Source of the DNA: Amphiscolops sp. MND2022
Lineage: Eukaryota
Reading direction: 5' to 3'
Length of the DNA: 64,000 bases
Assembly (NCBI GenBank): GCA_964187785.1
Contig: OZ076409.1
Location: forward strand, 63,738,001 to 63,802,000
The translations under genes and the position numbers were made by a program. The notes below the pieces were generated by a model, which was given only the letters and a program-made list of their open reading frames with translations, had not been told where the DNA came from and ran no database searches. This document shows positions 1 through 48,051 of this stretch, piece after piece; position 1 is the stretch's first letter, and each line of letters begins with the position of its first letter.

Positions 1-217
1 TCTTTCGCCCTATGAGAGCATTTATTGCACGAATATCATCACGACAACATGTCTTCCAATCCAGGTTGGTTTGATTTTCTCTTTCTTTCAAACAAGCTTA
101 GCTTGATCAAGGCTAAACATTGTTCACATGACGCTTCCTGTTTCCATCAACTAGACGCGTGAAAGCACGCTTCATTCAATTTTCAAGACACTTCCGGAAG
201 ATTTCCAACGCGGTAAA

Positions 218-18268: not shown

Positions 18269-18605
18269 AATAAGCCGAGAATGGCAGTCGGCGCCACATC
18301 TAAGGCTCAAACATAGCATAAGTACTTCAAAGTGTTAAGATTTCTTTTACAGTACCGGAAAAACCCAAAGATTGGACCGAATTGGCGCGCTAAAAGGGGG
18401 ACCTTTTGGGATTTTTCAACATTTCTGTTGCAAAACATCAAAAAATTGAAGGGGGACCCTTTGGAGTCATTAAAAAATTTTAGAAAAAAAGTCTGGCAAT
18501 GCCAAAAAAACTGAAAGGGGGACCCTTTGGTCTCGCACCGTTACGCGGAAAAAGAGGAGAAACCTTTTTGGTTCAGTTCTCCAGGCCAAATGGTTCAATT
18601 TTGAC
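18269..18605 (-). mobile_element. Helentron/DINE-like repeat, partial copy
   Basis: Reverse complement of the 22480-22940 repeat, including the GGCGCCGACT end. Confidence 0.55.
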
Positions 18606-22318: not shown

Positions 22319-22940
22319 AGTCGGCGCTTCATGAAGTGTAACGCGGCTATTATAGTGACTTTTTTTCAATCCACACGAACTGACCAAAATAGTTCTTAAA
22401 ACTTCTACGAAATTTTATGGTCCCAAATTTAATCATTTAGCCTAGCGAACTGAACCAAAAAAGTTTTTCCTCTTTTTCTGCGTAATATACAATACCGGGA
22501 AAGACTAAAGGGCCCCCCTTTCAGTTTTTTTCGGCATTGTGAGACTTTTTTTTCGAAAAAAAATCCCCAAGGGCCCCCTTCAATTTTTTGATGTTTTGCG
22601 ACAGAATGGATGTTGAAAAATCCCAAAAGGTCCCTCCTTTCAATTTTTTCGGCATTGTGAGACATTTTTTCGGAAACTTTTTTTCACCGTAGGGTCCCCC
22701 TTCAATTTTTCGATGTTTTGCAACAATGGATGTTAAAAAAACGCGAAAGGGTCCCCCCTTTTAGGGCGCCAGGGGCCCGCGCTAGCGGGCACCTCTCGCG
22801 CCAGTTCGGTCGTTTTGGTTTTTCGTGAGTTAGATACTCTTCTTGTGAGTTTGATACTTTGAGTTTTTTGACACTTTCATGTCCTTTTGCTATTTGTGAG
22901 CCTTAGATATGGCGCCGACTTATGTCGTTCCCAGCTTGTT
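22319..22940 (+). mobile_element. Non-autonomous Helentron/DINE-1-like repeat, copy B, with internal tandem subrepeats
   Basis: AGTCGGCGC (22319) / GGCGCCGACT (22911) then ...CTTGTT; repeated AGGGTCCCCC(T)TTCAATTTTTT and TTCGGCATTGTGAGAC units. Confidence 0.6.
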
Positions 22941-25130: not shown

Positions 25131-26637
25131 TGTCCCCGGCGTCCGCCTGTGATGGCAACTTGTATTCTATTTGCCACAACTATCAAAAAGCCCTACCCAA
25201 CACGATCCATTTGAATTGAAACTTTTTAAATGAACTGCATTTGTATCTTAAAAGTCATGTAATTTATTTATTCTGAATATGAAATATCATGTAGTGATGA
25301 TTTGATATTATGTAATACCGGCGCTAATTTGTACGTTACTAGTAAATTGGACACCAAGGCGTACAGGTAGAGGAAACGCGTTCAAATGTTTTCTCGCCTG
25401 TCGCCTTGGTCCACCGGTCCAATTAACTCGCTAGCCAATCACAGTGCAGTACTTTCTTTATTCGGTGCTGTATTATGCTGCTAGATTAAAGGGACTGAGT
25501 GGCCATATGCCGCCAGTCAATAATATCTCGGTCCACTCATGTCGATTGGACGCTGAGTCCGTTTTGGAATTAAAGGCGCTTACTGGAAAGTGCTATGAGT
25601 TACATAATAACCGGTGCTTTACTGTCTTATTTAGTAAATTATTAGTCCTTAGAGGACATGTAATCTGCGTTAATTAGTACGCCATCAATGCATTTGATAT
25701 AATTCATGCAATTAGAAAGTGTTGAAATACATGCAGTTTATTGAGTTCATACATGTATGTCGTTGCTTGTCCGCATGGACCTTCAGTCTTCCCGCCACAA
25801 TAACTGTCGGGAAAGGCCCTTTGATCTATGATGATGTCACTAGTTAACCGTTGCTATATTTAGAACTGTTGCTATTTTTAGAAGCCCTTAAGGCTATTAT
25901 TAGAAAATGATGATCAATATTATGCGTGTCATGTAGTTTGTTATATATATATAGCGGAGACATTTAGTCCCGGGGGACAAGAAGTTTGACCTTACTACAT
26001 GCTTGTTACTTGATACTGAGTAATCTCACACTGAATTTGCAAGCCTGAGAACTTAATTTAAATTCTTACCTCTTGCAACAATCTCTTATGCCTTCTACTA
26101 GACGTCAAAAAGCGAAAGCTAGGAAATCTAGGGAAATGGACATGATGTCCGACTTTGAAAACTTAGATGTGATGCTGGGAAATAGCAATAATAATCCCAT
26201 AGAAAGGGAATTAGCTGAAGCTATAGATCAGTCATCGGCCCATGGGGACGCTGATACACACACGTACCTAGAGAATGAATATAGAGATTATCAACATGAA
26301 AATGATGTACTGAGACAAAATGAAATCAGACACTCCTTTGAAACCTTCTCGAACGAGTTTAATCTCAGATTATCTCAAGAAATGGATTCTATGATGTCAA
26401 TGATGCATAATCAAATAAATAGAGCTGTCACAACGGCTATAAATGAAAGAGTCATTCCAGAAATCCAGAATATTGCAAACTCGATGTCCTCTATGGGACA
26501 CAGGGACACTGAGGCCAGTTCGTCCCCAAATAGTCAGGAGAACAGTGAAAGCGCACCCGGGCCTAAAATAAGAATTGCAAAGAAAGATTCACGATCTGTG
26601 GGTGACTTAAGAGATACCATGGGTCATGGTTCTTACA
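25131..26637 (+). repeat. 5' LTR (1507 bp)
   Basis: TGTCC...TTACA; differs from the 3' LTR by about four substitutions and one TA unit, as far as seen by eye. Confidence 0.97.
25931..25943 (+). promoter_or_regulatory. Candidate LTR TATA element, (TA)6
   Basis: TATATATATATA about 145 nt upstream of the gag ATG; (TA)7 in the 3' LTR. Confidence 0.45.
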
Positions 26638-27776
26638 TGGTGACAGGAGCTACCGACACCCAACCGCAAATTCCCGAATTTCTGACCGGACGAATCCACT
26701 CAACCCCGAACCTAGAGAGACAACAATCTACACACAATATCTCTCTGGACACGACTCTGCCAGCCCCGGCCCCAGAGGCTCCTGAACCTCCTCAGGACCC
26801 GTTTAATAGACTAGCCGACGTATTGGTCAATTTGCAAAACAAACCGCAATCTATGACCATCAGACCCGTACAAACAACCCCGATGACATTTGATGGGAAA
26901 AGTGAAAAATTTGAGCTCTTTGAGGACTTGTTCCATACGATGATCAAAATGCAGCCCACAATGACAGAACAAATGAAAATTAATCACTTTCATTCTTTGC
27001 TACGAAAGGGAGCATTACAGACATTCAGGAACATAAACTCAATCAACCGTCAAACTCTCGAGGACGTACTGGTCATATTCCGGAGGAAATATGTCAAACC
27101 GGAATCACAAGCAACAGCAAAGCATAAATGGCACCGATTGACCTTCGATCCAAGTACAATGAAACTACTAGACTTCTTGGAAGAACTGAACCAAGGTGCA
27201 GAAAAAGCATTTGGGGAAAACGCTAAAAGCATGATTGACAGCTTGTTATACGCGAAATTACCCCCAAAACTGAAACGATCTGTCAACATGGCCCGTCTGG
27301 AGAACGGCACGTATGAAGAAATAGTAGCTCATCTTGAAAGAGAACTGGAACTCAATGCATTAGAAGAGTCAGATGATCTGCCAATGGCCACTATGGCCTC
27401 GGCGTCCACGAGCCATAACAACTTACTGTCCAATGGTATCAACACAAATAAAGACGCCCAATGCTCATACTGCAAAGCGACGGGTCACTATTACAAAAAC
27501 TGCCCGAAACTCAAGAAGAAAAAGGAAATGGAGGACAAAGACGGTAAAAAACCTCAGCGTCCAACTTACCCACCGTGTGACACATGTGGCAAAAAGAACC
27601 ACCCAACCGAAAGATGCTGGCAAGGCGCTGGCGCCCACCTGCGACCCAAAAGGATGCAGACAGAACAAAATGACCGAAATGCTATAGACTCCGAAGGAAA
27701 GCCTAAAAAAGCAAATGACCCAGAAACGGCTACTTCAAGCCAATCCAATACTAAAAAATTTGATTCAAAAAACTAA
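26088..27776 (+). CDS. gag: Gag with two CCHC zinc knuckles; first ~183 codons lie inside the LTR
   Basis: CSYCKATGHYYKNC and CDTCGKKNHPTERC; capsid-like TFDGKSEKFELFED region; first ATG at 26088, alternative ATG at 26637. Confidence 0.92.
   Translation: MPSTRRQKAKARKSREMDMMSDFENLDVMLGNSNNNPIERELAEAIDQSSAHGDADTHTYLENEYRDYQHENDVLRQNEIRHSFETFSNEFNLRLSQEMDSMMSMMHNQINRAVTTAINERVIPEIQNIANSMSSMGHRDTEASSSPNSQENSESAPGPKIRIAKKDSRSVGDLRDTMGHGSYMVTGATDTQPQIPEFLTGRIHSTPNLERQQSTHNISLDTTLPAPAPEAPEPPQDPFNRLADVLVNLQNKPQSMTIRPVQTTPMTFDGKSEKFELFEDLFHTMIKMQPTMTEQMKINHFHSLLRKGALQTFRNINSINRQTLEDVLVIFRRKYVKPESQATAKHKWHRLTFDPSTMKLLDFLEELNQGAEKAFGENAKSMIDSLLYAKLPPKLKRSVNMARLENGTYEEIVAHLERELELNALEESDDLPMATMASASTSHNNLLSNGINTNKDAQCSYCKATGHYYKNCPKLKKKKEMEDKDGKKPQRPTYPPCDTCGKKNHPTERCWQGAGAHLRPKRMQTEQNDRNAIDSEGKPKKANDPETATSSQSNTKKFDSKN
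26638..26650 (+). promoter_or_regulatory. Primer-binding site
   Basis: TGGTGACAGGAGC directly after the LTR-terminal CA; resembles tRNA-Leu-type PBSs (inference). Confidence 0.75.
27767..27773 (+). promoter_or_regulatory. -1 ribosomal frameshift slippery site A AAA AAC
   Basis: Heptamer immediately before the gag TAA; pol is in the -1 frame and has no in-frame ATG at its start. Confidence 0.8.
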
Positions 27777-27778
27777 TT

Positions 27779-30700
27779 TTGCCACGACTCCAAATACATG
27801 ACTATATGTCGGTTCGACAATATGTCATTTCAGATCCTCCAATAATCAAATACAGCCAAACAATCAAGGATACAAAAGGAATTCCCACTGTTGTCTGGCA
27901 GCAACAAATGGAAAAAGCCTGTATTCGAACTTATAAAATAGTACATAATGATCGCCCAGACCGATTTTACGAAATTGACTATACTAAAGACTTCGAGACT
28001 CAATTCCGTCCCTTACCCTTGATCGAAGATTATCACCCTCAATACCCCGATCCTGATTACGGCAAAGACCCGTATTGGGACGACGAACTCTACGACAGAC
28101 AAAAACTCCAGTTTAGACAAGACGAATACCCACCAACGGACGACGAGGATGATCCCCCGATAGTGGACAACAAACTATCCAGGGCCCTCATTGAACTTTG
28201 GCAGCCAAATTCCGAAGCACTGATAGAAGAACTAGAGGAACTTCAAGAGCAAGAAGACTTTCAAGGCCCCAACAGCCTTTTAGACGAAACAGCCTTCTTG
28301 CACATTTTAGTGGAAAAACAAGGAGAACCGTCATACGTTCCCCTCTCCACCAACCTTGGCCTCAAAATCAAAAGGCGGATGCTATATTTCCCAATGGACT
28401 TTGGAGAACTAACATTAGATGGTCTCATAGACACTGGGGCCCACTCCAGCGCAATACCAGAAGCTGACCTTCGAAAAATACGGCTACTTGCACCCCAATC
28501 AATAGTGAAAGAGGGTCCTGCCCCGTCATTCCAAATTATGGTCGCAAATGGAGACCTGGAAACTCCGAAGAGTACAGTAGAACTGAAGTTCGAAGTAGGG
28601 GACATAGAGTTCCACGAAATCTTCATAGTGATGGAAAAATTATCCAGCCCCAAAATTGGACTTATGTTCTTACAAAGAAACCACACAGTCCTAGATATGC
28701 GCCAAGGCATACTTAACTTTCCCTTCTTCTCGATGCAATTGAAAACAGCTGACCATAAGTACTCCAATGTAATGGAACCTATCCTCAACCCCGAGGATAT
28801 TACGATTCCCCCAAATGGACGTACAATCATCCCTATCCAATCTCAAATTTATGCAGAAAACGCTGTCACTGGAATCTTACAACCCAGTGACCTTCTAAAT
28901 GAAGAAAATGATATAACATTTTGTGCCGCCATAGTCACATTGGACGAAGGGACTACGAGGATCCATGTCAACAATTTCACAGATCAGCCCTTTAAACTCA
29001 AAAAAGGGATGCACATAGCGAATTTCTCTGTGATGACTCCAGAGCAAATGAAACATGTCAGGCCAATAGACCCAGTGTCTACTTGGCACCTACTCAATGA
29101 AAATGAAGAAGATGCTATTTATTATATCAGCAGTCTTCTCAAAGCCAACAGGAACAATGACCAATACGAACAATACTGGTTTCCAACACCCGAAAACCCA
29201 GGGGACGAACAGTCCCATACTCCAATACAAAAGAGAATTCTTAGAGAATTACGAAACCTGCAAGAAGCAGAAAAACTAAATCCACAAGACAATGAAGAAT
29301 CTCGACAAAAATTCCTCAGTAACTTTGACTGGAAGGACTCAATGCTACAACAGCATGAAATCAAACAGATGGAAGCGCTATTAGTCGAATTTCACGACAT
29401 ATTTGCCCGTCATAGGTTTGACATCGGTATGAATGAGGAATTCACGGTCAAATTGACCCCGAAGGACGACTCTCCTGCCTACAGCCAGAGCTTACCAACT
29501 CCGGTCAATTTAAAAGAGGACATATTGGTCGAATTAGCGTCACTACACAAATATGGTATTATAACAACATTACCATTCTCAAAGTACGCTAGCCCTATCT
29601 TTGCACAAAAGAAGCCTAATGGGAAACTACGACTACTGGTAGACCTCAGGAAGATCAACAATCTCATTTCTGATGATTATATCAACAACAACCATCCAGT
29701 CAGCACCTTAACGGACGCTGCACAACATATGGCCGGAAAGAAACTTTTCTGTAAGCTTGACTGTTCGCAAGCGTACCACTGCCTTCAAATGGCGGACCAA
29801 CGGTCTATAGAGATGTTGGCCTTCAACTTTGCCAGCCGAACGTTCGCATATCGAAGATTGGCCCAAGGTCTCAGCAGAGCCTTATCGGCATTCTCCAGTT
29901 TTATGAGAGAATATTTGGACCGTGTGATCAAAGCCGATCAATGTGCCCAATACGTGGATGATATTGGCATCGCGGCCAACGACGCGGAGCATCTCTTTAA
30001 AAATCTCAGAGCAACATTCGAATGCATCCGAGAGGCTGGATTGAAATTAACGATGCATAAATGCCACTTCGGAGCAACTGAGATTGATTTCTTAGGAAGG
30101 ACAATCACCCCTGAGGGTGTCAAGCCCCAGAAGGAACGAGTCACACACTTCCTAGAAAAAACGAAATTCCCAAAATCCAAAAAAGCCTTACAACGTTACC
30201 TCGGATTCCCTAATTATTATAGAAACTACATACCGAGGTTATCAGAAAAATTAGTCCCTTTCTTTCAACTATTAAAGAAGGACGAAAAGGTCTTAGTCAC
30301 AACGGAACTGATTGAACAATTCAACGAGATCAATAGAGATTTGGACAGATGCACCCAGCTAGCCCTTAGGCAGCCCTTGCCAAATCGACAGCTAGTCCTG
30401 ATGACAGATGCTAGCTTTACAGCAGCCGGATATGCTATACTTACTGAAGATGATCCAAATCAGAAATTTACCTCAACCAAGAAATCCTATGCGCCTATTG
30501 CATATGGTTCAAAAACTTTTACTCCTTCACAACTTAAAATGTCAATTTATGCGAAGGAATTTTTAGCCATCTATTACGCCTTCAAAGAGTTTGGACATAT
30601 ATTCTGGGGCACACCTAAGCCGGTGATTATCCTCACAGACAACAAATCGGTCACAAGGTTCTTCCAGACTAAAATAATACCGCCGCCATTATGGAACGCG

Positions 30701-32926
30701 TGTGACTTTGTCATTCAGTTCAATTTCACTATAGCGCACATTCCAGGCAAAAACAACACAGCGGCGGACTACCTGTCCCGCATGGAAATGGACCCCACTG
30801 AAAAGTTAGTCCTAAAAATCCGAGCGGACGTTGAAACCCAACCCATTGAAGTTAATGTCCAATCAGCCGGCGTGTCTGAAGAAGAACAAGTGTTCTTTAC
30901 AGAAGAAGACAATGAAACAGAAGAACAAATTTGGGAAAGGAAAAGACAATCAAAAGCAGGACTCAAGGTCGACGAAACCGTCATCCAAATCGATACTATA
31001 TCTGAAAATGTAGTGGATGAAATTACCAATTTCACCCAGAAACTACGTAGAACCAACCAAATACTATTAGAACAATCTAAAGATCCGACTTTGCTTCATT
31101 TAAAAGCAAAAATTCAAAATGAAGAATACTCTGAAGAAATCCTTCAGCAGGACATTCGGTATAAACATTATTTAAATAATTTAGACCATATAGTCCTCAA
31201 GGACGAAATAGTGACCCGACAGTATTACGACGAAACGGGACAAATCAAATACCACCAAATCTTACTGCCAAAGCACCTGTTGAAAGAACTACTGCAAGCA
31301 ATACATGGCACGGCACATCGACATCCTGGCATCTCTAAAATGCTGCAAGAGATCCGCCAAAAATATTACTACCCTGGCATAGCAAAATACGTTAAAAAAT
31401 GGGTAGAGGGATGCGAAACGTGCGCTAGAGACAAAAGAGTCCCAAATAATAAAATTACACCAGAATTGTTGAACTTGCCCGAATGGGACCTTGGTCCAGA
31501 AGATGCCATGCAGATAGATTTATTACCAAACTTACCGACTAGTGGCGGATACCAGACGGTGATGACGGCTATAGATGTATTCTCAAGGTACTTATTCGCC
31601 TACCCGCTAATTGAGGCAACAGCCACGAATGTAGCCAAGGTGATAATTGATATCATGACGAAACATTCATATTTACCAACAACTCTCATCACAGACAAAG
31701 GGTCCGCATTTACATCGACCATCATAGCTGAGATAACTCAAATTTTGGGTATAACACTCAAATGCGCTACTACAAAGCACCCGCAAACAATTGGCAAACT
31801 CGAAAGGACGCATGCCTCACTCAAAACAAATTTGAAAATGGCCTCAGGGGAATATCGACGCCAATGGCATAAATATTTACCATTAGCAGTACTCAACTAC
31901 AATACCACATACCACTCTAGTATTGGATGTGAACCGAGTAAAGTCTTCCACGGCCGGATTCCCTATAACGTCCTAGACCACAAATTGGGAAATAACCCCA
32001 ATAAAAATTTTATGCCAACTACAGAATTTGCGGAGGAAGTACAGCAGAGGACACAGATCCTCATAGATCAAACAAAAAAGAACATAATGCAGTCTTATTT
32101 GAAATATAAGGACTATTATGACCGAAAGGCAAAGGCTGCCCCGCTTAAAGAAAAGGACTACTGTTTTGTCTTACAGCCTAAAGCGGACAGTCAGGCATCA
32201 AAAATTCCATTCAAGGAATACAGGTGGATCGGACCATTCGTCATTCAAAAAGTACTGTCCAACGACAATTATATTGTCCGTCGTCTAAATACAAATAAAA
32301 CTCAAATACTTCATCGCATTAGACTAAAAAAATTCGTCCCGAATGCCCCTTTAGAGGACAAATACGATGGAGAAAAATTACAACCCGACAATGAGATAGT
32401 AATCCCGCAAGACGATTTGTACACTATCTCATGGGAAGTAGATTTTGAGTACGACTTATTTGAACCGAGGAAGGAAAATTGGACAGACGTGGCCACACGC
32501 CGGCCGACGGACGCCGAGTCCACTAATACGGACAATGACGTTACTGACGAGGAAAGCGCTAGCAATGAAAGCTGCAGCGAGCGCACGACAAGAAATTACG
32601 TCACCGAGAACGAACGCGTCAGCAATGAAAAATACAATGAGCGCACGACAGAATATGACGTTACCGAGGACGAAATATCCCCGAGAGAGAACAATAGCAG
32701 TGACGAACCGTCCCCCCCGACTCAAACGCCACAGCGCACTAAGAATGAAAATGACGTCACTAATGATTTAAAAGATACGGAAAACGTTTCAAACACAGGC
32801 GCAGATATTACCGTGCCCGGAATATCAGAAAATGGAAATTCAAATGAAAATTCGAGCCCTAGAGGAGGGAAATACAATCTTCGACCTAACCCTACCCCCA
32901 ACTTTACTGATGAATACAGATACTAG
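27779..32926 (+). CDS. pol: Pol polyprotein: aspartic protease, dUTPase-like spacer, RT, RNase H, integrase, acidic tail
   Basis: LIDTGA; LRLLVDLRKIN, KLDCSQAY, QYVDD; MTDAS, ILTDNK, HIPGKNN.AADYLSR; H..HPG...CETC; QID, ITDKGSAF, GKLERTH; uninterrupted 1715 codons. Confidence 0.97.
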   Translation: MPRLQIHDYMSVRQYVISDPPIIKYSQTIKDTKGIPTVVWQQQMEKACIRTYKIVHNDRPDRFYEIDYTKDFETQFRPLPLIEDYHPQYPDPDYGKDPYWDDELYDRQKLQFRQDEYPPTDDEDDPPIVDNKLSRALIELWQPNSEALIEELEELQEQEDFQGPNSLLDETAFLHILVEKQGEPSYVPLSTNLGLKIKRRMLYFPMDFGELTLDGLIDTGAHSSAIPEADLRKIRLLAPQSIVKEGPAPSFQIMVANGDLETPKSTVELKFEVGDIEFHEIFIVMEKLSSPKIGLMFLQRNHTVLDMRQGILNFPFFSMQLKTADHKYSNVMEPILNPEDITIPPNGRTIIPIQSQIYAENAVTGILQPSDLLNEENDITFCAAIVTLDEGTTRIHVNNFTDQPFKLKKGMHIANFSVMTPEQMKHVRPIDPVSTWHLLNENEEDAIYYISSLLKANRNNDQYEQYWFPTPENPGDEQSHTPIQKRILRELRNLQEAEKLNPQDNEESRQKFLSNFDWKDSMLQQHEIKQMEALLVEFHDIFARHRFDIGMNEEFTVKLTPKDDSPAYSQSLPTPVNLKEDILVELASLHKYGIITTLPFSKYASPIFAQKKPNGKLRLLVDLRKINNLISDDYINNNHPVSTLTDAAQHMAGKKLFCKLDCSQAYHCLQMADQRSIEMLAFNFASRTFAYRRLAQGLSRALSAFSSFMREYLDRVIKADQCAQYVDDIGIAANDAEHLFKNLRATFECIREAGLKLTMHKCHFGATEIDFLGRTITPEGVKPQKERVTHFLEKTKFPKSKKALQRYLGFPNYYRNYIPRLSEKLVPFFQLLKKDEKVLVTTELIEQFNEINRDLDRCTQLALRQPLPNRQLVLMTDASFTAAGYAILTEDDPNQKFTSTKKSYAPIAYGSKTFTPSQLKMSIYAKEFLAIYYAFKEFGHIFWGTPKPVIILTDNKSVTRFFQTKIIPPPLWNACDFVIQFNFTIAHIPGKNNTAADYLSRMEMDPTEKLVLKIRADVETQPIEVNVQSAGVSEEEQVFFTEEDNETEEQIWERKRQSKAGLKVDETVIQIDTISENVVDEITNFTQKLRRTNQILLEQSKDPTLLHLKAKIQNEEYSEEILQQDIRYKHYLNNLDHIVLKDEIVTRQYYDETGQIKYHQILLPKHLLKELLQAIHGTAHRHPGISKMLQEIRQKYYYPGIAKYVKKWVEGCETCARDKRVPNNKITPELLNLPEWDLGPEDAMQIDLLPNLPTSGGYQTVMTAIDVFSRYLFAYPLIEATATNVAKVIIDIMTKHSYLPTTLITDKGSAFTSTIIAEITQILGITLKCATTKHPQTIGKLERTHASLKTNLKMASGEYRRQWHKYLPLAVLNYNTTYHSSIGCEPSKVFHGRIPYNVLDHKLGNNPNKNFMPTTEFAEEVQQRTQILIDQTKKNIMQSYLKYKDYYDRKAKAAPLKEKDYCFVLQPKADSQASKIPFKEYRWIGPFVIQKVLSNDNYIVRRLNTNKTQILHRIRLKKFVPNAPLEDKYDGEKLQPDNEIVIPQDDLYTISWEVDFEYDLFEPRKENWTDVATRRPTDAESTNTDNDVTDEESASNESCSERTTRNYVTENERVSNEKYNERTTEYDVTEDEISPRENNSSDEPSPPTQTPQRTKNENDVTNDLKDTENVSNTGADITVPGISENGNSNENSSPRGGKYNLRPNPTPNFTDEYRY

Positions 32927-33162
32927 TCAGAAAACTTGAATTACCAGTCCCTTTATTTCACTTCCAGCCCTTGAGGACTTTTATTTTTTACTTGGGACTA
33001 CTCTGACTGATTTTTCTTACCGATTACTGGAACTAACTATATACAAAAAGAGAGACTCAGTGGCGAATAATACAAAGCCACGCAAACAAGCAACAAAGAA
33101 GAAATAAATATAAAGCAGTTTACAACAAGTACAGTCTAGAAACAAATGTACTCTTTGTACAT

Positions 33163-36100
33163 TTAAGATTTAGAAGTTCCAGGAGCGTTCGCATCACTGG
33201 ACTTTGCGGCTTCAGTTTCACCAGCTGCCCGAAAGCCAACTTTCTTGCCTTTACCAGGGGACAGCTTGCGTTGTTTCCCCCCTTCTTTGGACGAGGAATT
33301 GGAAGCGGACTCGATGTCAGGACGGACACTCCTGCCCAGAGCTTTGTAGACTGCGATTAAGGTTTTATGCAAATTAGCCTTGCCGAAACTGTCTACGTGT
33401 GACCAAGGGTCTCCTGGGACGTTGCCAATACTGAATCGGAATTCCAGATCTTTGAATGTACCCAGGGAAGCTTCTGTAGTGCACACAGCCACTGAATTTG
33501 CCACATTAGCTAGGTAAGACTGTGCAGGCATGATGACATCGAAAAGTCTACTTCGGGGATCATTACAATCAACTCCAGAGAATTTGATGGCTGGGAGCTC
33601 TGGCAATTTAGAAGTCAGGCACAGACAACTCAACTGGAAGATGTAGAACAGATGTTTCCGCAACTTCAATTCAGGCATACCAATCAGAAAGGCTACCATG
33701 TCGGTGAAGACATCTGGGGTATCCTTGACTCCAGAGTTGGCTTGGCGGAAGAACTCCACGAAATCGATGTACTCGTCTCGGGCATCAGTCTCTGGGGAAT
33801 TCTCTAACCAGCCCCGCAAACTAAAGGATCTGTACAAAGCGGAGAAACAATATGTGGCTTGCTCAAGCGGCAGACTCAGGAGGGCTACTGGATCGAAACT
33901 GCCCAGGCCTCTTACGATACCAGCATTCAGGCTAATGTCGGCAAGGAAGACTTTCAAAAGATGGACGAGGTAACCTCGGGCCTTGGTGGCGAAATCGTCC
34001 CGAATGGCCTCAGCTGCTGTCTCCGTCTCTTCAGGCGTCAGTTGCTTCTCGCTATAAATTCTCCTGACGCGAGCATGGCATGCGGCATCCAAATTTTCTT
34101 TGAGCTTCAAGCGACTCAAGAAATCTCGGTTAGACAGTTGTCGCCAATTCTGTCCTTGCAAATCGCCCAGCGACTTCCAGTCCAGGATATCAGGCACGTG
34201 TCTGGGAAGTAGTGCTCGACCTGCCAACTTGCGGATGAAAGTATGGAACTCTCGGAAGGTGTAGAAGCCACTATCCCTTCGCTGTGCAAACTGACTCTCG
34301 AAGCTCTTGGTGTCTGGAAAACAAAACATTACCATCCTGAAGGGTCCCTATGACACCATTAGACCTAGCGTGTCAATCTACTATTTCTAGCATGAGCCTC
34401 AAATAGTGGTAAGAGAAACTGGGACCATGAGGTCCGTAGACAAGAGGAAAACCAATATACTAACAATCGCGGACAATTCGTGCGAAGAACTCCAGCTTGA
34501 TGGTGAAGAAATCATCAGCTATGATTTCCCACTCGAGGCTTTGGGGCTTGTTTTTAACCCCCTGGTGGACCTGTGGTGGTGCTATCTTCGTCAAATGTTG
34601 GTGCACAGACTTCCAGTTCGCAATCAGTTCCGAACATATGGCTGGTACAGCGGCAATTTCCAGGTGATAGGTAGTCATCGCCTACAATAGACATGCTTAT
34701 TGGAGGCAATTCAAAACTGGACCTACAGTCTTACGGACAGTGACCTTACCTTGACGAATTCTGGCATTAGGGCGGCCCAGGGCTGTCCACCGCAACCGTC
34801 CAAGAATGTAACCAGAAACTTCAACTGAGAGAAGAAGCTGATAGTGCCAAACACGCTGCCCCATCGTTCATGCATCAGGTCCGGCAGACAAAGAGCATCA
34901 AATCGAAAAGGGTACTCAATCCCTTTTTGGAAGAGGCAAGAACGTTCAAGAAGAGGAATCACCTCTGCAGGACACCCAGACACGCTCACAATCTGAGGTT
35001 GTGTTGATAGGACGGACAAGAGGCGGGAAAGTACCAACAGGAAACCAGCTGCAGGCTCTGAAGCAGTCCGGTATCGTAACAAACGGACGACATTGAGGGA
35101 TTCGCCCTTCCAGAACCGAATCGAGACAAAGCTGTAGGTGCCTCGCATTTCAAACTCCAGAGAGTACTGACCCGTGACACTGACTTGATACGCGATGTCA
35201 GCGATGCCACAGAGGAAGATGTGATGAAAGATCGTCTAAAACAAAATTAACCAGGATGAAAATGAATCGGGGCTACGTTAGGACTAAAGGACCCTGAGGC
35301 TAGAAATCGCCAATACTTACTGTCAGTTTGGAGGAGCCCCAATCGTAAGGAGAGAACAGACTCTGATGGTTGGTAACAGTGCCAATCTGTGACCATAGCG
35401 ACTCAAGGACTTTTAGATCTCCACAACGAGGAGCGAAGAGAGCAACCATGGAGATTTGGACGCACAGTCTGATCTCCTCCTGCCCAGCGATAGAGCCCAG
35501 GCCAGCCATATGATCCTCGTAGAAGGGGTTACTGCTGCCAGTTTCAACCAAAGGAACTTGCATGAAGAAAGGCTTCTCTTTCTCAAGTTCTAAGGGAGTC
35601 AACAATTGGCCCTTCTTCCCTCTGACTTCGTACACAGTCCGGCCAGTCACCTTGTCCTTCTTCCTTAGGTGCTCATATCTCCAGCGCTGATCTTTACGGA
35701 AATGCGACTCACACTGGAAATGACGGACAATCTCCCGTGCTCCTTTTGAGAAAATGGAAACGTTCGTCTTACATATCTGGCAGTAGAACTTATGTTTGTT
35801 GTGTTCTGGGTCAAGGGGGCCAGTGACGAATGTCCGAGTCCACTGAATTCCTTTGAAATAGGCTTCTTTCATTATTTTGCCTGTGCGTCCAGGAAGCCGA
35901 CGACGTTTGCGAGGTGGACTTGAGACAGAAGCTTGGTCAGTGGTCAATGAGGCTAAAGGCTCATAGTCGGTTGAGCAGAATCCTGGACTAGGGACTTGTT
36001 GTGCGGACGATGGTCCAGGTGTTGATGTCGAACTTTGATCTGGAGGACTTGGAGGGGGATTGATGCTCAGATCCTTGCCAGTTCTTTGCGAATTGATGAC

Positions 36101-37150
36101 AAACTCATCTTCCGAACTGAGGGCTCCGCTGGTGTACCCCTCAGTCCCAACGTCACTGTCTTCAGCACCTGATCCAAGGCTGCCGCTCTGCTTACTGAAG
36201 ATCTTGATTCGCTGTTTCCCGGATCCTTGAGGAGTACCTTGGGAGCGAATTCCCGCCCGGATCGCTTCTTCCAGCATGTTCTTCATTTGGTGTAGAGAAG
36301 AAGTAATGGTTTCCGTGGAGACGGCACGCAAGATGGAATGGACTTGCCCCTGATTGAAGGCTACGGTCGCATGGCCTACCGGGAGGATGCACGGGTTGGT
36401 CTCATTGAAATGCTGATTTATGAGCGTCCGAGCAGAGGCAGAAAGAGGCCTGGTAGGACTGAAGAGCTTCGGGGAAGATGTGCTTGGTAACTCAGCCGAG
36501 GTTGATGGCTGAACATTCTCATGGGTCTCAGTCCCAGTGGAGCTTAGCGCATCCAGTGCAATCAAGAAAGGAGGCTCCTTGACGGTCTCAGCACCTGAAC
36601 TATCAAGCAATTCTTCAGCGTCGCTGGTATCTGTTTGGAAGTAATCCGCCTTGGTGACGGAAAATCCAGCTTCACTGACAGCATCATTGCCCCGCTCAAT
36701 CTCAGCCTCAGGAGACTCCTTGTCTTGTGAACCAGTCGTGACCTGGGGAATTGGCTCCGACTCAGAAGCTTTCTCAGCGGTTGGCTTTACTACATTGTCT
36801 ACAATGGCAGATGTGGTAGGAGGCAAGAAGGAGATGTCAAGACCAAGGCCCTGGCAACCCAAAGTCTGCAATTGACGGTCAATGTAAGCGGAAATGCTTT
36901 CGACCGTAGAAGGGCTTGGGGTCGGAGCAGGCTTATCAGGATTATCTCCTGACGGCACTAGTTGTGTGGACTCAGGGTCTACAGGGATCGAAGTGGCCTG
37001 ACTGGTACCAGCTTCTTCGGGAATGGCAACTTCTTCTTCAGTCATGGATGCAGTAGCGGTGGCAGGAACAATATCATTTTGCTCTTCGGACGACATGTCT
37101 AAACAGAAAGAGATAAACTCAAGCGGATAACTTCCTGAGAAAGAGTCCAT
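33163..37150 (-). CDS. Antisense 4-exon cargo gene, 1227 aa: disordered N-terminus, NLS, BED-type zinc finger, degenerate hAT-transposase-like body. Exons 37150-35321, 35235-34750, 34681-34465, 34313-33163
   Basis: Introns 35320-35236 (GTAAGT..TTTTAG, 85 nt), 34749-34682 (GTAAGG..TTGTAG, 68 nt) and 34464-34314 (GTTAGT..TTCCAG, 151 nt), in phases 0, 0, 1, join four minus ORFs without a stop; PPRKRRR; FYCQICKTNVSIFSKGAREIVRHFQCESH. Confidence 0.88.
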
Positions 37151-38377
37151 TACCGCATTAAAAATCTTCCGGAAGTAGATATTTCGAACTCAAGTGAACA
37201 CTTGTGTTATGGGACAGGAAGTACGTGAATGAAATGAGAGCCCTGATCAAGCCTCAGATTAATTCAATACTAAAATAGAAACAAAACCTGAAAAGCTACT
37301 GACCTGTTTGAATGCAAAGAAGGATGTCTTGAGAAGGGAGTACTGTGTACAGTTAGACTGGTGGTCACTGAATTGAAAGCTGAGCGATCAATAGAGGAGG
37401 ATGACGAAGCTGGACTGGTGACAATACAGCAGCAGTTGTAGGGAGAAGACAAATTCTTCTTTGATGAAGGACAAGAAAGATTGCTGGAGATGAATTAGCA
37501 AAAGGGACTCAGTGTCGATTGTCCTAAGATGACCCAAGAAATCCACAAAAAGACGTAATCGGAAGAAATTACAAATGACTACTTCAAATGAATACGGAGT
37601 AAATACGACTAGAAGACTAAAAGACTAGAGATGATTGAATACTGGCGATAATACAAAGGGAGTAACTGGAGAAGAATTCGAATGTAAAAGAATTGAAAGC
37701 TGAATTGGCAATGTGACAAAGTGTCAAAATTGGAGTTCGTGGCTATACAGTTTGGTGTCAAATTTGTTATTATTTACAATTTACAGTGTTATGTGGATAG
37801 AGTCTGCCAGCGATATCTACAATTACTTATTTATTTCGAAAATGTACCATTTTACAAATTATTTCATAATTTTCCAAGATTTCATAAATTTCAAGGTCAT
37901 TTTACATTAGTCCTTATATGGATTTACGACCTTGGGGGGCCATTTTTATTCAGAAAAGATCGTGCTGCATTCCTATTGGCTAATCAAGATTGCTGGGGGA
38001 CGGCGTGGCTGACTGCCATAGCTTACCCTCTTGAAACCTTTAAGTGTTCGATGAGTGTTAATAAACACTTGAAGCGGCACTCTTAATATGGAGGTGTTGA
38101 CAGAACTGATGTAAGCCAACAAGGCAGTTGTCGGCGTTATCAAAGAAGGCAAGACGGATAGATGAAAGATATTACCAAGATGGAATTTGTTATTGAAAAT
38201 TTATCCTTCTCGGGAGACGTAAAACCCCGGGAAACCGAGACGAAAACTCCCGCTAGTCGACGGAAGGGAAGACCGCCATTGTTCTACAATCATTCACTAC
38301 AACCAGTTGGCTATTTGAAATAAAACTCAAAAAACTTCTCAAAAGAAATCTCTCCGAAAATTGCAAAGAAAATAATT

Positions 38378-39214
38378 ATGGACAAATTCCTATCAAGTCA
38401 TTTCGACTCAGAGTCCCCCGAGTACTTCCCTGAAGACTTTCTGGGTGCAGCCCCGGGAGACGGAATAATTTGTATATCCAGTGATGACGAAATGGAACGT
38501 GTGAGCAGCGCTTCAGTAGACGACCTGGAATCTCTATCCGACGATGATGAAGTGGCTTTACTGGCGGAATGTGTAGAAAGACAAATGGAACTCCCAATAG
38601 CTTCAGGAAACATTCCGGTGCCCTCCTGTTCAAACCAACAGGGAGGAGATCACTACGGGACCCCCAGGCTCTCATACATCCCTGGACCAATGTTCGATGC
38701 TGGATACTTTGATCTAGGAATGGGGAGAGGGCCAGTCGCAAGAGACACAAGGCTCAAAAACGATCATCCGATTAATATTTGCAGCCAATTAATTCCAATG
38801 GTGGACACGCCAATGTCCCCCCCTGCTGTAGATAAATACCCTACAGACGACTGGAGAGCAATGGTAGAGCCCTCTACTAGTAACAAGCAACAATGCCCAA
38901 GTGGAATACACTTTAAAGGCCCTAGCGACGACAATCCCTACATCACGGGCTGCACAGACTGCCTCATCTGCGGAAAATCTGTGGAACAGATTCAAGATGA
39001 AGCAGTGATTGACTACATGCACAAGACGGCTGTCCGAGGGGAGTCCCCAGAACAATTCAATGCCAGAAGTCTAGCGTTCTTAGAAGGAATGAAGGTGGGC
39101 TGCTTCATGCTAATCCCAGGGGGAGTGTCCCAGGCGTCCGCCTGTGATGGCAACTTGTATTCTATTTGCCACAACTATCAAAAAGCCCTACCCAACACGA
39201 TCCATTTGAATTGA
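38378..39214 (+). CDS. Sense accessory ORF (278 aa, acidic N-terminus, Cys cluster), unknown function; ends inside the 3' LTR
   Basis: Intact ATG-initiated ORF; IICISSDDE; CTDCLICGK; runs across the PPT and 89 nt into the LTR; no signal peptide or TM segment obvious. Confidence 0.75.
   Translation: MDKFLSSHFDSESPEYFPEDFLGAAPGDGIICISSDDEMERVSSASVDDLESLSDDDEVALLAECVERQMELPIASGNIPVPSCSNQQGGDHYGTPRLSYIPGPMFDAGYFDLGMGRGPVARDTRLKNDHPINICSQLIPMVDTPMSPPAVDKYPTDDWRAMVEPSTSNKQQCPSGIHFKGPSDDNPYITGCTDCLICGKSVEQIQDEAVIDYMHKTAVRGESPEQFNARSLAFLEGMKVGCFMLIPGGVSQASACDGNLYSICHNYQKALPNTIHLN
39118..39125 (+). promoter_or_regulatory. Polypurine tract
   Basis: AGGGGGAG directly before the 3' LTR TG. Confidence 0.7.
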
Positions 39215-40634
39215 AACTTTTTAAATGAACTGCATTTGTATCTTAAAAGTCATGTAATTTATTTATTCTGAATATAAAATATCATGTAGTGATGATTTGA
39301 TATTATGTAATACCGGCGCTAATTTGTACGTTACTAGTAAATTGGACACCAAGGCGTACAGGTAGAGGAAACGCGTTCAAATGTTTTCTCGCCTGTCGCC
39401 TTGGTCCACCGGTCCAATTAACTCGCTAGCCAATCACAGTGCAGTACTTTCTTTATTCGGTGCTGTATTATGCTGCTAGATTAAAGGGACTGAGTGGCCA
39501 TATGCCGCCAGTCAATAATATCTCGGTCCACTCATGTCGATTGGACGCTGAGTCCGTTTTGGAATTAAAGGCGCTTACTGGAAAGTGCTATGAGTTACAT
39601 AATAACCGGTGCTTTACTGTCTTATTTAGTAAATTATTAGTCCTTAGAGGACATGTAATCTGCGTTAATTAGTACGCCATCAATGCATTTGATATAATTC
39701 ATGCAATTAGAAAGTGTTGAAATACATGCAGTTTATTGAGTTCATACATGTATGTCGTTGCTTGTCCGCATGGACCTTCAGTCTTCCCGCCACAATAACT
39801 GTCGGGAAAGGCCCTTTGATCTATGATGATGTCACTAGTTAACCGTTGCTATATTTAGAACTGTTGCTATTTTTAGAAGCCCTTAAGGCTATTATTAGAA
39901 AATGATGATCAATATTATGCGTGTCATGTAGTTTGTTATATATATATATAGCGGAGACATTTAGTCCCGGGGGACAAGAAGTTTGACCTTACTACATGCT
40001 TGTTACTTGATACTGAGTAATCTCACACTGAATTTGCAAGCCTGAGAACTTAATTTAAATTCTTACCTCTTGCAACAATCTCTTATGCCTTCTACTAGAC
40101 GTCAAAAAGCGAAAGCTAGGAAATCTAGGGAAATGGACATGATGTCCGACTTTGAAAACTTAGATGTGATGCTGGGAAATAGCAATAATAATCCCATAGA
40201 AAGGGAATTAGCTGAAGCTATAGATCAGTCATCGGCCCATGGGGACGCTGATACACACACGTACCTAGAGAATGAATATAGAGATTATCAACATGAAAAT
40301 GATGTACTGAGACAAAATGAAATCAGACACTCCTTTGAAACCTTCTCGAACGAGTTTAATCTCAGATTATCTCAAGAAATGGATTCTATGATGTCAATGA
40401 TGCATAATCAAATAAATAGAGCTGTCACAACGGCTATAAATGAAAGAGTCATTCCAGAAATCCAGAATATTGCAAACTCGATGTCCTCTATGGGACACAG
40501 GGACACTGAGGCCAGTTCGTCCCCAAATAGTCAGGAGAACAGGGAAAGCGCACCCGGGCCTAAAATAAAAATTGCAAAGAAAGATTCACGATCTGTGGGT
40601 GACTTAAGAGATACCATGGGTCATGGTTCTTACA
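39126..40634 (+). repeat. 3' LTR (1509 bp)
   Basis: Direct repeat of 25131-26637, followed by the TSD GAAAT. Confidence 0.97.
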
Positions 40635-43699: not shown

Positions 43700-46600
43700 A
43701 ATGATTGAAGTTGCCACACTTTTCAGATGTGAAGATCAAACAAAACATACCATAAGTTGCAGCTTCTCGCAACATACAGTGCAACTGTTCTAGACGTGAT
43801 TTTGGTTATATCAAAAATCTAGTGTATTAACACTGAACAAGACTATAAATCAAAACGAAAAGCTGTTTCTGAAAGAGCTTCAGCGATTGACTTGCTGTCT
43901 TGGTAACTTCATGAATGGTTGAAGTTTACTGCGCGGAAAAAAAGGCCCATGAATAACAGGATGACTTCCATAAACAACACATGTTTCATTTCAGTCATGT
44001 TCAAAATTGACTACGAGACAGCTACTGATCCAATTTTTTTCAGCTTTGAAAACGTTGCAAGGGAACAAAGTCTTGTCCCACAGGATGAAATTTTCTTAGA
44101 GCCACTGGGCTGATGAGGCAGTAGGACGAACCGAGATATGGATGAGCCGCTCTGAAAGCAGCAGAGATTTCTAAATCTCTCGAAGAATCAGCTGGTAATG
44201 TGCACTTTCGAACGCCACAGCTGAGATGCTGCTCAGGTATCCTCGTTTAAACACCTATAAGATACATTGAATGCGTGGATATCAAGTTAAAGGTGAAAAT
44301 GAAACAATCTTCTAAATTCTCACCTAAACGTTAACCAGAATGAAATTTCTAGGGGTACTTGTTTTGTCAGTTACTGAATTGAAGTCAACACAACATTGCA
44401 TGTTATTGCCTGGGTTAAGTCCTATGTAGAAGACGGACAACTGACAAACGTTCCTGATCAGGTATGTCCAGCATAGAATGAACATAGAAGACCTGATAGG
44501 ATTCCTCCAGTATTTCAGGAGTCTTTTTACCATGAATAGAAAACTATATCTGCTTTGGTCTCGTGGCTTCCCTATCTGCCCTCTGGACCTGAATAGAAAC
44601 TCCTACACACAGAAGCATGAAAAACTTCAAGAGTTTTGGTTGAAGTCTCCCATTGAAGCATGGCGAGGCATAAAAAAGCAGCAAGTTTGAGTGCGGCAGC
44701 TTTCCGGTTTGACAGAATTCAACGAACGCAACCGTCTATTGAATACTGGGGGAAAACACATGTTTCGGAAGTCCGAACTAATGGCACTTATTTCTATCGT
44801 GCTGAGTTTTTATAGCAGATATCAACAATGAATGTTCTTGTTACTCCAAGTAGCACTTGATGCATATAATCAATGACGACATCCTCGGGTACAGAGAGGA
44901 AGTTATCTATAATAGAAGCACCTCTCCAACCTAACACATGTCTATTTGTCTATTTGTGGCTTTGATGTCCAGGAGAGCCTGCCGACGCATTTGTCTAGTT
45001 CTCATTTTGAGTTGCATGTCGAAGGGATGAATCAACGCGAAGCGACCGTTGAATTGTGTCTAGTTGAGAATAGAACATTAGCTACCATAATCAATAACAG
45101 CAACGTGGAACTCCACTTTCATCTGGAGCAAAAAACGATTCAGCACAATCCTGTTCCAAGTAGTTCCCCGCACTCAGGCGTACTCGGAAATGGATTCAAA
45201 GTTTACCGACGACTTCACCAACCACGTTTTCTCTAAAAACCTGTCTGTAGATATCGAAATAATTGAGGTTACAAAGTGCATGGTTCCGTTAACTGAAAAT
45301 GATAGGTCTTCCAACTCTCCGAGATCTCGTTTGACGCTTTCGAATAGCTCTTGCCAGTTTGGTGTGCCTCTACCACCAAACAAGGCAGCCAGTATCAAGT
45401 TGGAAAATCGCGACCTGCTTGGAACTATACCGGGTAAATGTCAAGTTTGACTGATTTCAACGGACATAGACCATCACTAATGCACAAAAGGTAAATAGTT
45501 TTCACTTTGTTCGAGTGCCGAGGGAGCTTCATATCAGTCTGTAATTGCCATGACTCAGTTCGGGCAAGTTTTGCGCCATGTCTGAGGAGTAGATGTTTGA
45601 GCTGCTCTCATATTTAAATTAAAAAAACTCCGTTTGCAGTTGATGTTTTTCCTGAAACCTTGGAAGGTTGTTTCTGGGAGGCGAACAATTTAATATTGCA
45701 TGGTATGTTATAAATGCGCAATAAACAAAACCGTTTTAGGTTCAATGTGAGCTTCTGAGCCCATTCAGATAATCCACACTCAGACACCAGCCCTGTGAAT
45801 TGATCTTCAAACATAGAGACGCTGATGTTAGATCCCTCAAAAAGTTCGACGTCACTTTCGTCATCGGAACTCTCCATAAATGTGGATGAATCTGTTGGTG
45901 AGGAATATGACTTCTCGCCAAATTTACACTCGCCGCAATCTTCGTTATCTGGCAAAAAATTCAATATAATTCATAGGGTCTAATCATTATAACGCTGCTT
46001 GAAAAAACGATGCAAAATCGTTTTTGTAACTAATTGTGTTTGCAGAGTGACAAAACAATTTTGGGCTATTAATTTAAAGTCGAACTAACTGAAATGGAAT
46101 GAAACCAAAACAGTTCGCAGCTTCGGTGAAACAATGACACCAAAAAGATGGAAAAACAACTTGGTCAATTTGACACCTATATCAGCTGCGTGTAGCGGTG
46201 TGTGGAAGATTTAATGTCTTAGAAGACGGACAACTGACAAACGTTCGTGATCAGGTATGTCCAGCATAGAATGAACATAGAAGACTTGATAGGATTCTTC
46301 CAGTATTTCAGGAGTCTTTTTACCATGAATAGAAAACTATATCTGCTCTGGTCTCGTGGCTTCCCCATCTGCCCTCTGGACCTGAATAGAAACTCCTACA
46401 CACAGAAGCATGAAAAACTTCAAGAGTTTTGGTTGAAGTCTCCCATTGAAGCATGGCGAGGCATAAAAAAGCAGCAAGTTTGAGTGCGGCAGCTTTCCGG
46501 TTTGACAGAATTCAACGAACGCAACCGTCTATTGAATACTGGGGGAAAACACATGTTTCGGAAGTCCGAACTAATGGCACTTGTTTCTATCGTGCTGAGT

Positions 46601-47805
46601 TTTTATAGCAGATATCAATATTGAATGTTCTTGTTACTCCAAGTAGCACTTGATGCATATAATCAATGACGACATCCTCGGATACAGACAGGAAGTCATA
46701 AGAACAGAAGCACCTCTCCAACCTGACACAGGTCCATTTGTCTATTTGTGGCATGTGTGTCCAGGAGAGCCTGCCGATGCATTTCGCTAGTTCTCATTTT
46801 GAGTTGCATGTCGTAAGGATGAATCAACGTTTGTTTCTCCAATTTGATGATCAATCATCGTAGAATCAGGGCAGCCGAAGCGACCGTTGAATTGTGTCTG
46901 GTTGAGGATAAAACATTAGCCACCATTTTCAAAAACAGCAACGTGGAATTCCATTTTAATCTGGAGCAAAAAACGATTCAGCACAATCCTGTTCCAAGTA
47001 TTTCCCCGGACTCGGGCATACTCAGAATTGAATTCAACGTTTACCGACGTCTTCACCAACCACGTTTTCCCAAAATATCTGTCTGTCGAGATCGACATAC
47101 TTGAGGCTACGAAGTGCATGGTTCCAATAACTGAAAATGATAGGTCTTCCAACTCTCCGAGATCTCGTTTGACGCTTTCGAATAGCTCTTGCCAGTTTGG
47201 TGTGCCTCTACCACCAAACAAGGCAGCCAGTATCAAGTTGGAAAATCGCGACCTGCTTGGAACTATACCGGGTAAATGTCAAGTTTGACTGATTTCAACG
47301 GACATAGACCATCACTAATGCACAAAAGGTAAATAGTTTTCACTTCGTTCGAGTGCCGAGGGCGCTTCACATCAGTCTGTAATTGCCTTGACTCAGTTCG
47401 GGCATGTTTTGCGCCATGTCTAAGGAGTAGATGTTTGAGCTGCTTTGTCATATTTGAACCAAAAACAACTCCGCTTCCAGTCGACGTTCTTCTTGAAACC
47501 TGGAAAGGTTCATTCTGGGAGGCAAGGAATTTATTATTGCATGGTATGTTGTGGATGCGCGGCAAACAAAACCGTATTAGGATCAATACGAGCATCTGAG
47601 CCCGGTCAAACAATCCACACTCAGAAACCAGCCATGTGAATTGATCTGCAAACATTGAGACACTGATGTTAGATCCCTCAAAAAGTTCAACGTCACTTTC
47701 GTCATCGCAACTCTCCATAAATGTGGATGAATTTGTTAGTGAGGAACATGACCGCTCGCCAAAAGTAATTTCGCCGCAATCTTCGTAATCTGGCAAAAAA
47801 TTCAT
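43700..47805 (-). pseudogene. Decayed CMC/EnSpm (CACTA)-type transposase, partly duplicated in tandem
   Basis: Minus-strand motifs ISDGLCPLKS..IYP, MILAALFGGRGTP, VVIDYMHQVLLGV and FNRRLRSL; many stops and frameshifts; boundaries approximate. Confidence 0.65.
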
Positions 47806-48051
47806 TGATTCATATAGTCAAATGATTTTAACGCTTCTTGAAAAAACTACGTACAATCTCTTTTGTAATAAATTGTGTCTGCAGATTGACAAAACAGTTT
47901 TTTTGAGCTTTTAATCTAAAATTGAACTCAGTAAATGTAAATAAAACAGTTGGCGGCTTCGTTAAAACAATGACACCAAAAAATGGAAAAACTTGACACC
48001 TTGACACTTCTATGTCAGCTGCGTGAAGTGGTGTGGAAGTTTTAATGTCTT
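44428..48051. repeat. Tandem direct duplication of ~1.8 kb (44428-46220 and 46221-48051)
   Basis: Both units start AGAAGACGGACAACTGACAAACGTTC and end GTGTGGAAG(A/T)TTTAATGTCTT; paired ORFs in the track. Confidence 0.9.

Follow-up and report, generated by a model that had tools for sequence, protein, structure and literature searches.

How does a long terminal repeat (LTR) retrotransposon come to carry a multi-intron gene on its opposite strand, and what would such a gene do for it? This question is raised by a 64,000-nucleotide stretch of Amphiscolops sp. MND2022 DNA (contig OZ076409.1, positions 63,738,001 to 63,802,000), hereafter called the window, which holds a Ty3/Gypsy element. Four minus-strand exons of this element lie tail-to-tail with pol, between the end of pol at 32926 and the start of the 3' LTR at 39126. 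We believe that the antisense gene they form is almost certainly real and functional. Judged by sequence comparison, it is a fixed, selected, intron-bearing accessory gene both of this element and of distant families.

Structure of the antisense gene

The original prediction had joined four minus-strand open reading frames (ORFs) through GT-AG introns of 85, 68, and 151 nt (phases 0, 0, and 1) into one coding sequence of 3684 nt, and our exon-by-exon check agreed. The features of the gene are as follows.

37099..37303, minus strand: candidate 5' intron, 205 nt; short conserved motifs inside are possibly promoter elements
37150-35321, minus strand: exon 1, 1830 nt; acidic Ser/Pro-rich region, PPRKRRR, finger, and conserved domain; start possibly at 37096
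35236..35320, minus strand: intron 1, 85 nt, phase 0, GT..AG
35235-34750, minus strand: exon 2, 486 nt; conserved ExE, Cys, and His
34682..34749, minus strand: intron 2, 68 nt, phase 0, GT..AG
34681-34465, minus strand: exon 3, 217 nt
34314..34464, minus strand: intron 3, 151 nt, phase 1, GT..AG
34313-33163, minus strand: exon 4, 1151 nt; all-helical domain, then basic low-complexity tail
32952..32985, minus strand: two AATAAA candidates (32985 and 32957) for the poly(A) signal of the antisense gene

The exons add up to 1227 codons plus a stop, and every exon is stop-free in its frame. All three introns contain stops in all three frames. Of 120 exon-1 homologs, 94 reach the implied end of exon 1, and in 81 of them the next residue is Val, which corresponds to the donor GT. 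Among the 15 exon-4 homologs that extend upstream, three run across junction 3, each with exactly one bridging residue. This residue is the codon that a phase-1 intron divides and thus backs the junction. All homologs found are exon-sized, unnamed pieces; the gene is broken up by gene callers that take no account of splicing on the antisense strand. Among copies of the element, intron lengths shift by non-triplets (85 to 84; 151 to 153 or 155). The comparative evidence is strong that the three introns would be spliced out of the antisense mRNA as proposed. Since they lie antisense to the genomic RNA, they would survive reverse transcription; this explanation had been offered with the original prediction, and it fits the layout of the gene.

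Where translation starts is uncertain. All five copies compared (L002 and L010 to L013) have a GT donor at 37303, and the TTTAG directly before the ATG at 37096 resembles an acceptor, so the ATG at 37150 may sit in a fourth, 5' intron. The protein may then start at ATG 37096 and have 1209 residues. The first 18 residues appear conserved across many homologs; their pattern of Leu followed by Asp, Gly, or Glu also fits a conserved splice acceptor. A 55-nt 5' intron (37153-37099) was disfavored, its donor being absent in L013. An arrangement similar to the candidate 5' intron also occurs at window positions 63-270. At 218-964 (plus strand), the window holds a truncated exon 1 of another family, with similar first 18 residues and upstream motifs, followed by a stop and unrelated DNA. 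A short ATG-bearing exon may lie before it at about 49-63.

Copies, selection, and distant families

In the genome (1.07 Gb searched), all 37 DNA matches scored, out of 1297 candidates, span the whole 3988-bp gene region at 96 to 100% identity. Exon 4 was found in at least 108 places on all 13 large contigs, at 88 to 100% identity (best of 7666 candidates). An internal stop interrupts 11 of 109 exon-4 rows, a set in which scoring the best of the 7666 candidates favors open frames. At 65 of the 108 places, a sense ORF like the one that precedes the 3' LTR in the window lies 2.8 to 5.2 kb away on the opposite strand, and no other arrangement occurs among the matches listed.

These copies bear on the most trivial explanation, that of a one-off nested DNA transposon or of chance ORFs. 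hAT elements are common in this genome, in which we counted at least 150 hAT C-terminal domains, and this speaks for a nested insertion. However, sister copies and distant families share the place and orientation of the gene, and the ratio of nonsynonymous to synonymous divergence (dN/dS) is far below 1. No pair of terminal inverted repeats (TIRs) flanks the gene: the region 32900-39200 has only short, chance-level inverted pairs, and there is no 8-bp target-site duplication (TSD) around the gene. With all 37 scored copies full length as well, we regard this explanation as refuted and hardly credible, in keeping with the original prediction.

We compared the window pairwise with copies that each carry stops or frameshifts of their own. 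Against L011 and L012, the most distant copies fetched (about 82% identical), dN/dS was 0.04 to 0.10 in the conserved exons and 0.16 to 0.17 in the low-complexity N terminus, and against L013 it was 0.05 to 0.24. Selection was strongest in exons 2 and 3. The splice dinucleotides were kept at 70 of 72 positions across 12 copies. The original prediction had named a dN/dS below 1 and intron conservation among copies as tests of the gene, and both were observed (0.04 to 0.24 over all comparisons).

The gene is also found in distant relatives. In family L014/L015, it is 30 to 42% identical to the window gene and again lies tail-to-tail with the integrase. Its introns fall at the same three sites, with GT..AG ends and lengths of 72, 96, and 70 nt, and L014 has an extra intron inside exon 3 (L014:1243-1358). 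The homolog P0022, which groups with the L014 family, is without intron 3. Together, the extra L014 intron and P0022 show that introns have been gained or lost within the lineage. The integrases of the window and L014/L015 are 62 to 67% identical, so the accessory protein diverges faster than integrase. Among the matches listed, a sense ORF 88 to 90% identical to that of the window adjoins 4 of 12 copies of a family that is 45% identical in exon 4. Fast divergence and re-pairing with different neighbors are as expected of a specificity factor.

Homologs formed 430 clusters for exon 4 at 50% identity and 176 for the finger region at 90% identity. The 20 clusters examined consist of unnamed proteins, nearly all from ENA assemblies, and none of the listed homologs has a Pfam domain or a name. 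A second and a third family of the gene gave at least 106 and at least 109 matches in the genome, in lists that may overlap other families. P0022 and P0141 had no high-identity match in the genome with these queries; they may come from other genomes, and the family may reach beyond this one. No relatives were found in viral or metagenome contigs, and an exon-4 search among longer proteins, a weak search, gave no match. Matches to a related family at C5:3368637, 3382739, and 3396841 lie at intervals of exactly 14,102 bp and mark a tandem array of elements.

A possible transposase origin

The predicted protein contains the features that had been read from the sequence at first, namely, the low-complexity N terminus, PPRKRRR, and a CxxC..H....H finger. 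Residues 1-405 are 38% Ser, Pro, Glu, and Asp, with a net charge of -36. PPRKRRR, which resembles a nuclear localization signal (NLS), is at residue 412, and CQIC is at 457. The finger reads C-x2-C-x16-H-x5-H, with the four ligands kept in 79 to 81 of the 80 to 82 aligned homologs. In the exon 2 alignment, which has only 10 rows, two Glu are kept (10/10 and 9/10 rows) together with one Cys and one His (9/9). By eye, exon 2 may follow the pattern strand-strand-strand-helix-strand-helix-strand, as in RNase H. An alignment-based model of exon 4 is confident and helical (predicted local distance difference test [pLDDT], 86.1), and a single-sequence fold was poor (pLDDT, 44.6). No DDE triad was recognizable among the conserved acidic residues, whose positions were judged by eye. 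This makes transposase activity unlikely.

A still-active nuclease or transposase with a remodeled active site would give the element a second DNA-level activity. The residues kept in exon 2 (two Glu, one Cys, and one His) and the strong selection on exons 2 and 3 would suit such an enzyme. However, the element encodes its own integrase and has ordinary LTR ends flanked by a 5-bp TSD, and no TIR pair surrounds the gene. By eye, the other expected places hold no conserved acidic residue, and the exon-2 set comprises 10 rows. We consider this explanation very unlikely.

A bolder reading, to which we give somewhat less than even odds, is that the lineage took over the transposase of a DNA transposon and domesticated it as an antisense gene with several introns. 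Its product would be a sequence-specific chromatin regulator or anti-silencing factor, with hundreds of variants, intron gain and loss, and cassette exchange between families. As to the hAT descent itself, we lean toward it as probable on the basis of the BED-like finger, a weak language-model lead, and the order of motifs across exons 1 to 4, which we take to resemble that of Buster/ZNF862-type transposases. Language-model neighbors of P0246 (finger plus exon 2) were the GTF2IRD2 finger, the FAM200-ZBED5 RNase-like domain, and zf-BED, at 0.76 to 0.79. Against an Ac/ZBED4-type hAT profile, the finger scored 25.6, above all 25 shuffles (maximum, 23.3), at a probability of 3.6%. For the exon-1 profile, the ten best matches all fell on hAT N termini, at 1.6 to 3.1 bits only. 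The hATs compared were the genome ORFs L016 to L018 (DUF659 and Ac/ZBED4 types) and 120 ZBED4-like homologs, of which 60 entered the hhalign profile. L016, L017, and L018 are long hAT transposase ORFs (597 to 678 residues) elsewhere in the genome, and the named relatives of one hAT protein from this genome are animal ZBED4-like proteins.

The original prediction had derived the gene from a hAT transposase, and here it fared less well. Pfam, PDB, exon-4 fold, and hAT-profile comparisons gave no significant match, and the finger fell only weakly on BED fingers. The best Pfam match was a generic C2H2 model below the cut-off, with no match to PF02892 (BED). PDB profile searches gave nothing significant (best E, 0.54 and 1.9). 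With the exon-4 model, Foldseek gave no structural match to transposases: the best E was 0.51 in PDB and 0.39 among viral structures, and no transposase was listed, an absence that does not exclude a family. The VIA fold searches likewise had no transposase among the listed matches (wide search, best Z 6.4 over 62 residues; second search, best Z 4.8). Genome searches with DUF4371 and zf-C2H2_12 gave no match anywhere, and their controls were likewise silent.

Several results weigh against a domesticated, DNA-binding transposase. The language-model scores, being below 0.9, count as no more than a lead, and the neighbors of exon 4 were unrelated. The hAT dimerization domain (PF05699) was found in 0 of 62 exon-4 members, while control hAT ORFs match it at 1e-15 to 1e-17. 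Against the Ac/ZBED4-type profile, exon 2 scored 11.9 (shuffle mean, 14.4) and exon 4 scored 16.4 (shuffle, 15.6). The LTR shows no conspicuous repeated motif that would be a candidate binding site. The genomic context covers two family groups, the window family and L014/L015. Finally, the introns are less diverged than synonymous sites (p of 0.20 to 0.28 versus dS of 0.55 to 1.2), which hints at a further, unexplained constraint.

Alternatively, the gene might not be transposase-derived at all. It could be a chromatin gene captured from a host or a virus, or it could encode a lineage-specific protein of another fold whose finger is of a generic C2H2 type, and its product may target host silencing proteins instead of DNA. 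Every quantitative hAT test was negative or weak, the best Pfam match is the generic finger, and the listed homologs are without domain or name, all of which would fit this origin. On the other side, the language-model neighbors are consistently hAT-associated, and by eye the order of finger, strand-rich exon 2, and long helical region matches the hAT layout. Moreover, the hATs compared were of the Ac/ZBED4 and DUF659 types, other than the type that the motifs resemble. We judge such an origin unlikely and continue to favor hAT descent.

Proposed function

The antisense product appears somewhat likelier than even to be a DNA-binding regulator of its own element, including an anti-silencing role; this is our reading of its predicted domains. 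With its NLS-like motif, zinc finger, folded body, and disordered acidic arm, the predicted protein is built like a chromatin-binding regulator, and fast divergence with cassette exchange fits family-specific recognition of the element's own DNA.

We propose the following mechanism. A hAT-superfamily DNA transposon probably inserted antisense in an ancestral element and was retained after losing its ends. The Ty3/Gypsy lineage carries a fixed opposite-strand accessory gene, which would be transcribed from a promoter of its own within the 1.2-kb gap that precedes the sense ORF, and the antisense transcript would end at the AATAAA signals just behind pol. The spliceosome would remove the introns from the antisense mRNA, while the packaged genomic RNA would read them backwards, so that they are copied intact each round. 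The protein would be nuclear and would bind DNA through its BED-like finger and a transposase-derived, catalytically inactive body. Its acidic disordered N terminus may activate or shield the chromatin of its own element in trans, as a VANC-like or HBZ-like regulator.

The same features could serve integration. As an integration cofactor, the protein would bind the element ends or the integrase and tether the preintegration complex to host sites or import it into the nucleus. hAT transposases hold DNA ends, and a transposase-derived body would be preadapted for this task. The NLS-like motif and the finger are present, and nuclear import is among the roles proposed for plant antisense ORFs in the available text of PMC7264820. 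A separate antisense mRNA, however, would place the protein outside the packaged Gag-Pol polyprotein; the gene is also swapped between families, with copies on all 13 large contigs. We think a cofactor role rather improbable and prefer the regulator of the element's own chromatin.

Whichever role applies, the encoded protein is large, foldable, and under selection, and its hundreds of natural variants allow tests of where antisense accessory genes come from and what they do. It indicates that a retroelement can carry a host-like multi-intron gene through reverse transcription by backward orientation and that such introns can be gained and lost. If the hAT origin is true, one transposon class has domesticated the transposase of another, and the protein would be a candidate for the animal equivalent of the anti-silencing factors found in plants.

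Comparison with known systems

Grande (gene23), RIRE2, Retand (TRP28/PF04195), PvRetro13, and the fungal element Boty are described as carrying an antisense ORF in the interval from pol to the 3' LTR. The available parts of these reports state that the origin and function of such ORFs are unknown and that the plant ORFs have no similarity to other transposons (PMC7264820, PMC11963269). One of them urges that spliced antisense transcripts be looked for (PMC7264820). Like these ORFs, termed aORF-3R, the gene described here is antisense, lies between pol and the 3' LTR, occurs in most copies, and is conserved, and those plant products reported in the accessible sections are nuclear or predicted to bind DNA. 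The Grande ORF has its own promoter there, as would the gene here. Our gene differs in its 3 or 4 coding introns, its length of about 1,200 residues, its C2H2 finger, and its host, which is probably an animal. The plant ones are described as ORFs, and the word "intron" is absent from the available part of PMC11963269. In the antisense gene, we found no Pfam match to PF04195 (Retand TRP28) or SMC.

Spliced antisense transcripts are known in human T-cell leukemia virus (HTLV) and other deltaretroviruses, where, according to the accessible text, HBZ and APH-2/3/4 are nuclear regulators of the viruses' own LTR (PMC10186651). As far as this account reaches, the likeness is a spliced antisense gene with a putative nuclear regulator as its product, splicing here being judged from comparison. 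The difference is that these are retroviruses with env and with antisense promoters in the 3' LTR, and we claim no sequence relation. Deltaretrovirus antisense proteins are small.

With hAT proteins (Hermes, Ac, ZBED, ZNF862, FAM200/ZBED5, and GTF2IRD2), the predicted protein has in common an N-terminal BED-like finger, followed by what may be a core of the RNase H type and by an extended helical part. The His after the putative core may correspond to the C/DxxH motif of hAT transposases, as given in the available part of PMC7780238. In contrast to hATs, the gene gave no significant sequence, profile, or fold match in the comparisons made, has no recognizable DDE triad or hAT dimerization domain and no TIRs, and its carrier is a retroelement rather than the host.

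VANC proteins of VANDAL elements (MuDR) are fast-evolving, element-encoded accessory proteins and a model for the proposed function (PMC13547354, accessible portion). They belong to plant DNA transposons and have a MAIN-related fold, and we found no homology to the gene here. The LTR elements of bdelloid rotifers are animal Ty3/Gypsy elements with captured extra genes and a dUTPase between protease and reverse transcriptase (PMC5408684). Their ORF3s differ in being env-like, exonuclease, or esterase genes; the available text of that report is without "intron" and uses "antisense" for small RNAs only.

The original prediction knew of no description of such a system. This holds for the multi-intron, approximately 1,200-residue, lineage-wide version, which was not found in our searches. 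It does not hold for antisense accessory ORFs, which have been described in plants, and spliced antisense viral genes are also known. A search of the open literature, judged by the papers listed, returned no account of an LTR element whose antisense gene bears introns or stems from a transposase.

The host retrotransposon and its surroundings

The element is a Ty3/Gypsy retrotransposon with direct TG..CA LTRs, a TSD, and gag-pol in the order protease (PR), reverse transcriptase (RT), RNase H (RH), and integrase (IN). Its features are as follows.

25131..40634, plus strand: whole Ty3/Gypsy LTR retrotransposon, 15.5 kb; from LTR alignment and flanks, domain order PR-dUTPase-RT-RH-IN
25131..26637, plus strand: 5' LTR, 1507 bp, TG..CA; from LTR alignment
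26088..27776, plus strand: gag with zinc knuckles; DUF1759 and zf-CCHC matches, weak, below the cut-off
27764..32926, plus strand: pol, -1 frame, with protease, dUTPase, RT, RNase H, and integrase by Pfam
38378-39214, plus strand: second accessory ORF, 278 residues, acidic, CxxCxxC; runs into the 3' LTR, divergent to the antisense gene
39126..40634, plus strand: 3' LTR, 1509 bp, from LTR alignment; short purine tract directly before it

The 5-bp TSD, GAAAT, is present on both flanks. Between the two LTRs, there are only 4 substitutions and one 2-bp indel; these few differences together with the TSD indicate a young insertion. A TGG sequence resembling a primer-binding site (PBS) directly follows the 5' LTR at 26638. 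The gag frame opens within the LTR, so that the final approximately 550 bp of the 5' LTR are the gag start, and that part of gag is duplicated at the 3' end of the element. About 183 gag codons lie inside the LTR (26088-26637), with the second copy at 40085-40634, and the PBS-like site falls within the gag reading frame. In pol, Pfam scores were 1e-22 for RVT_1, 1.5e-11 for rve, and 23.5 bits for dUTPase (cut-off, 22). The dUTPase occupies residues 343-425 of the pol frame, between protease and RT, a placement as described for bdelloid and fungal elements.

The interval from pol to the 3' LTR measures 6.2 kb and contains the minus-strand gene and one sense ORF. This second accessory ORF, which is conserved and was absent from the original prediction, has at least 139 matches in the genome at 77 to 100% identity and no Pfam family above the cut-off. 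Beside near-identical antisense genes, it is either 90 to 100% or 77% identical. These two identity classes suggest recombination between subfamilies.

Elsewhere in the window, positions 8470-10752 (plus strand) hold an ORF of the long interspersed nuclear element type, with endonuclease and RT domains. At 44427-47992, there is a tandem duplication of about 1.8 kb with 81 to 98% identity, adjoined by two ORFs without a Pfam match (47263-48775, minus strand). The intervals 18286-18601, 22425-22940, 58975-59230, and 62404-62899 carry scattered repeats, direct as well as inverted, that resemble the ends of a family of non-autonomous DNA transposons.

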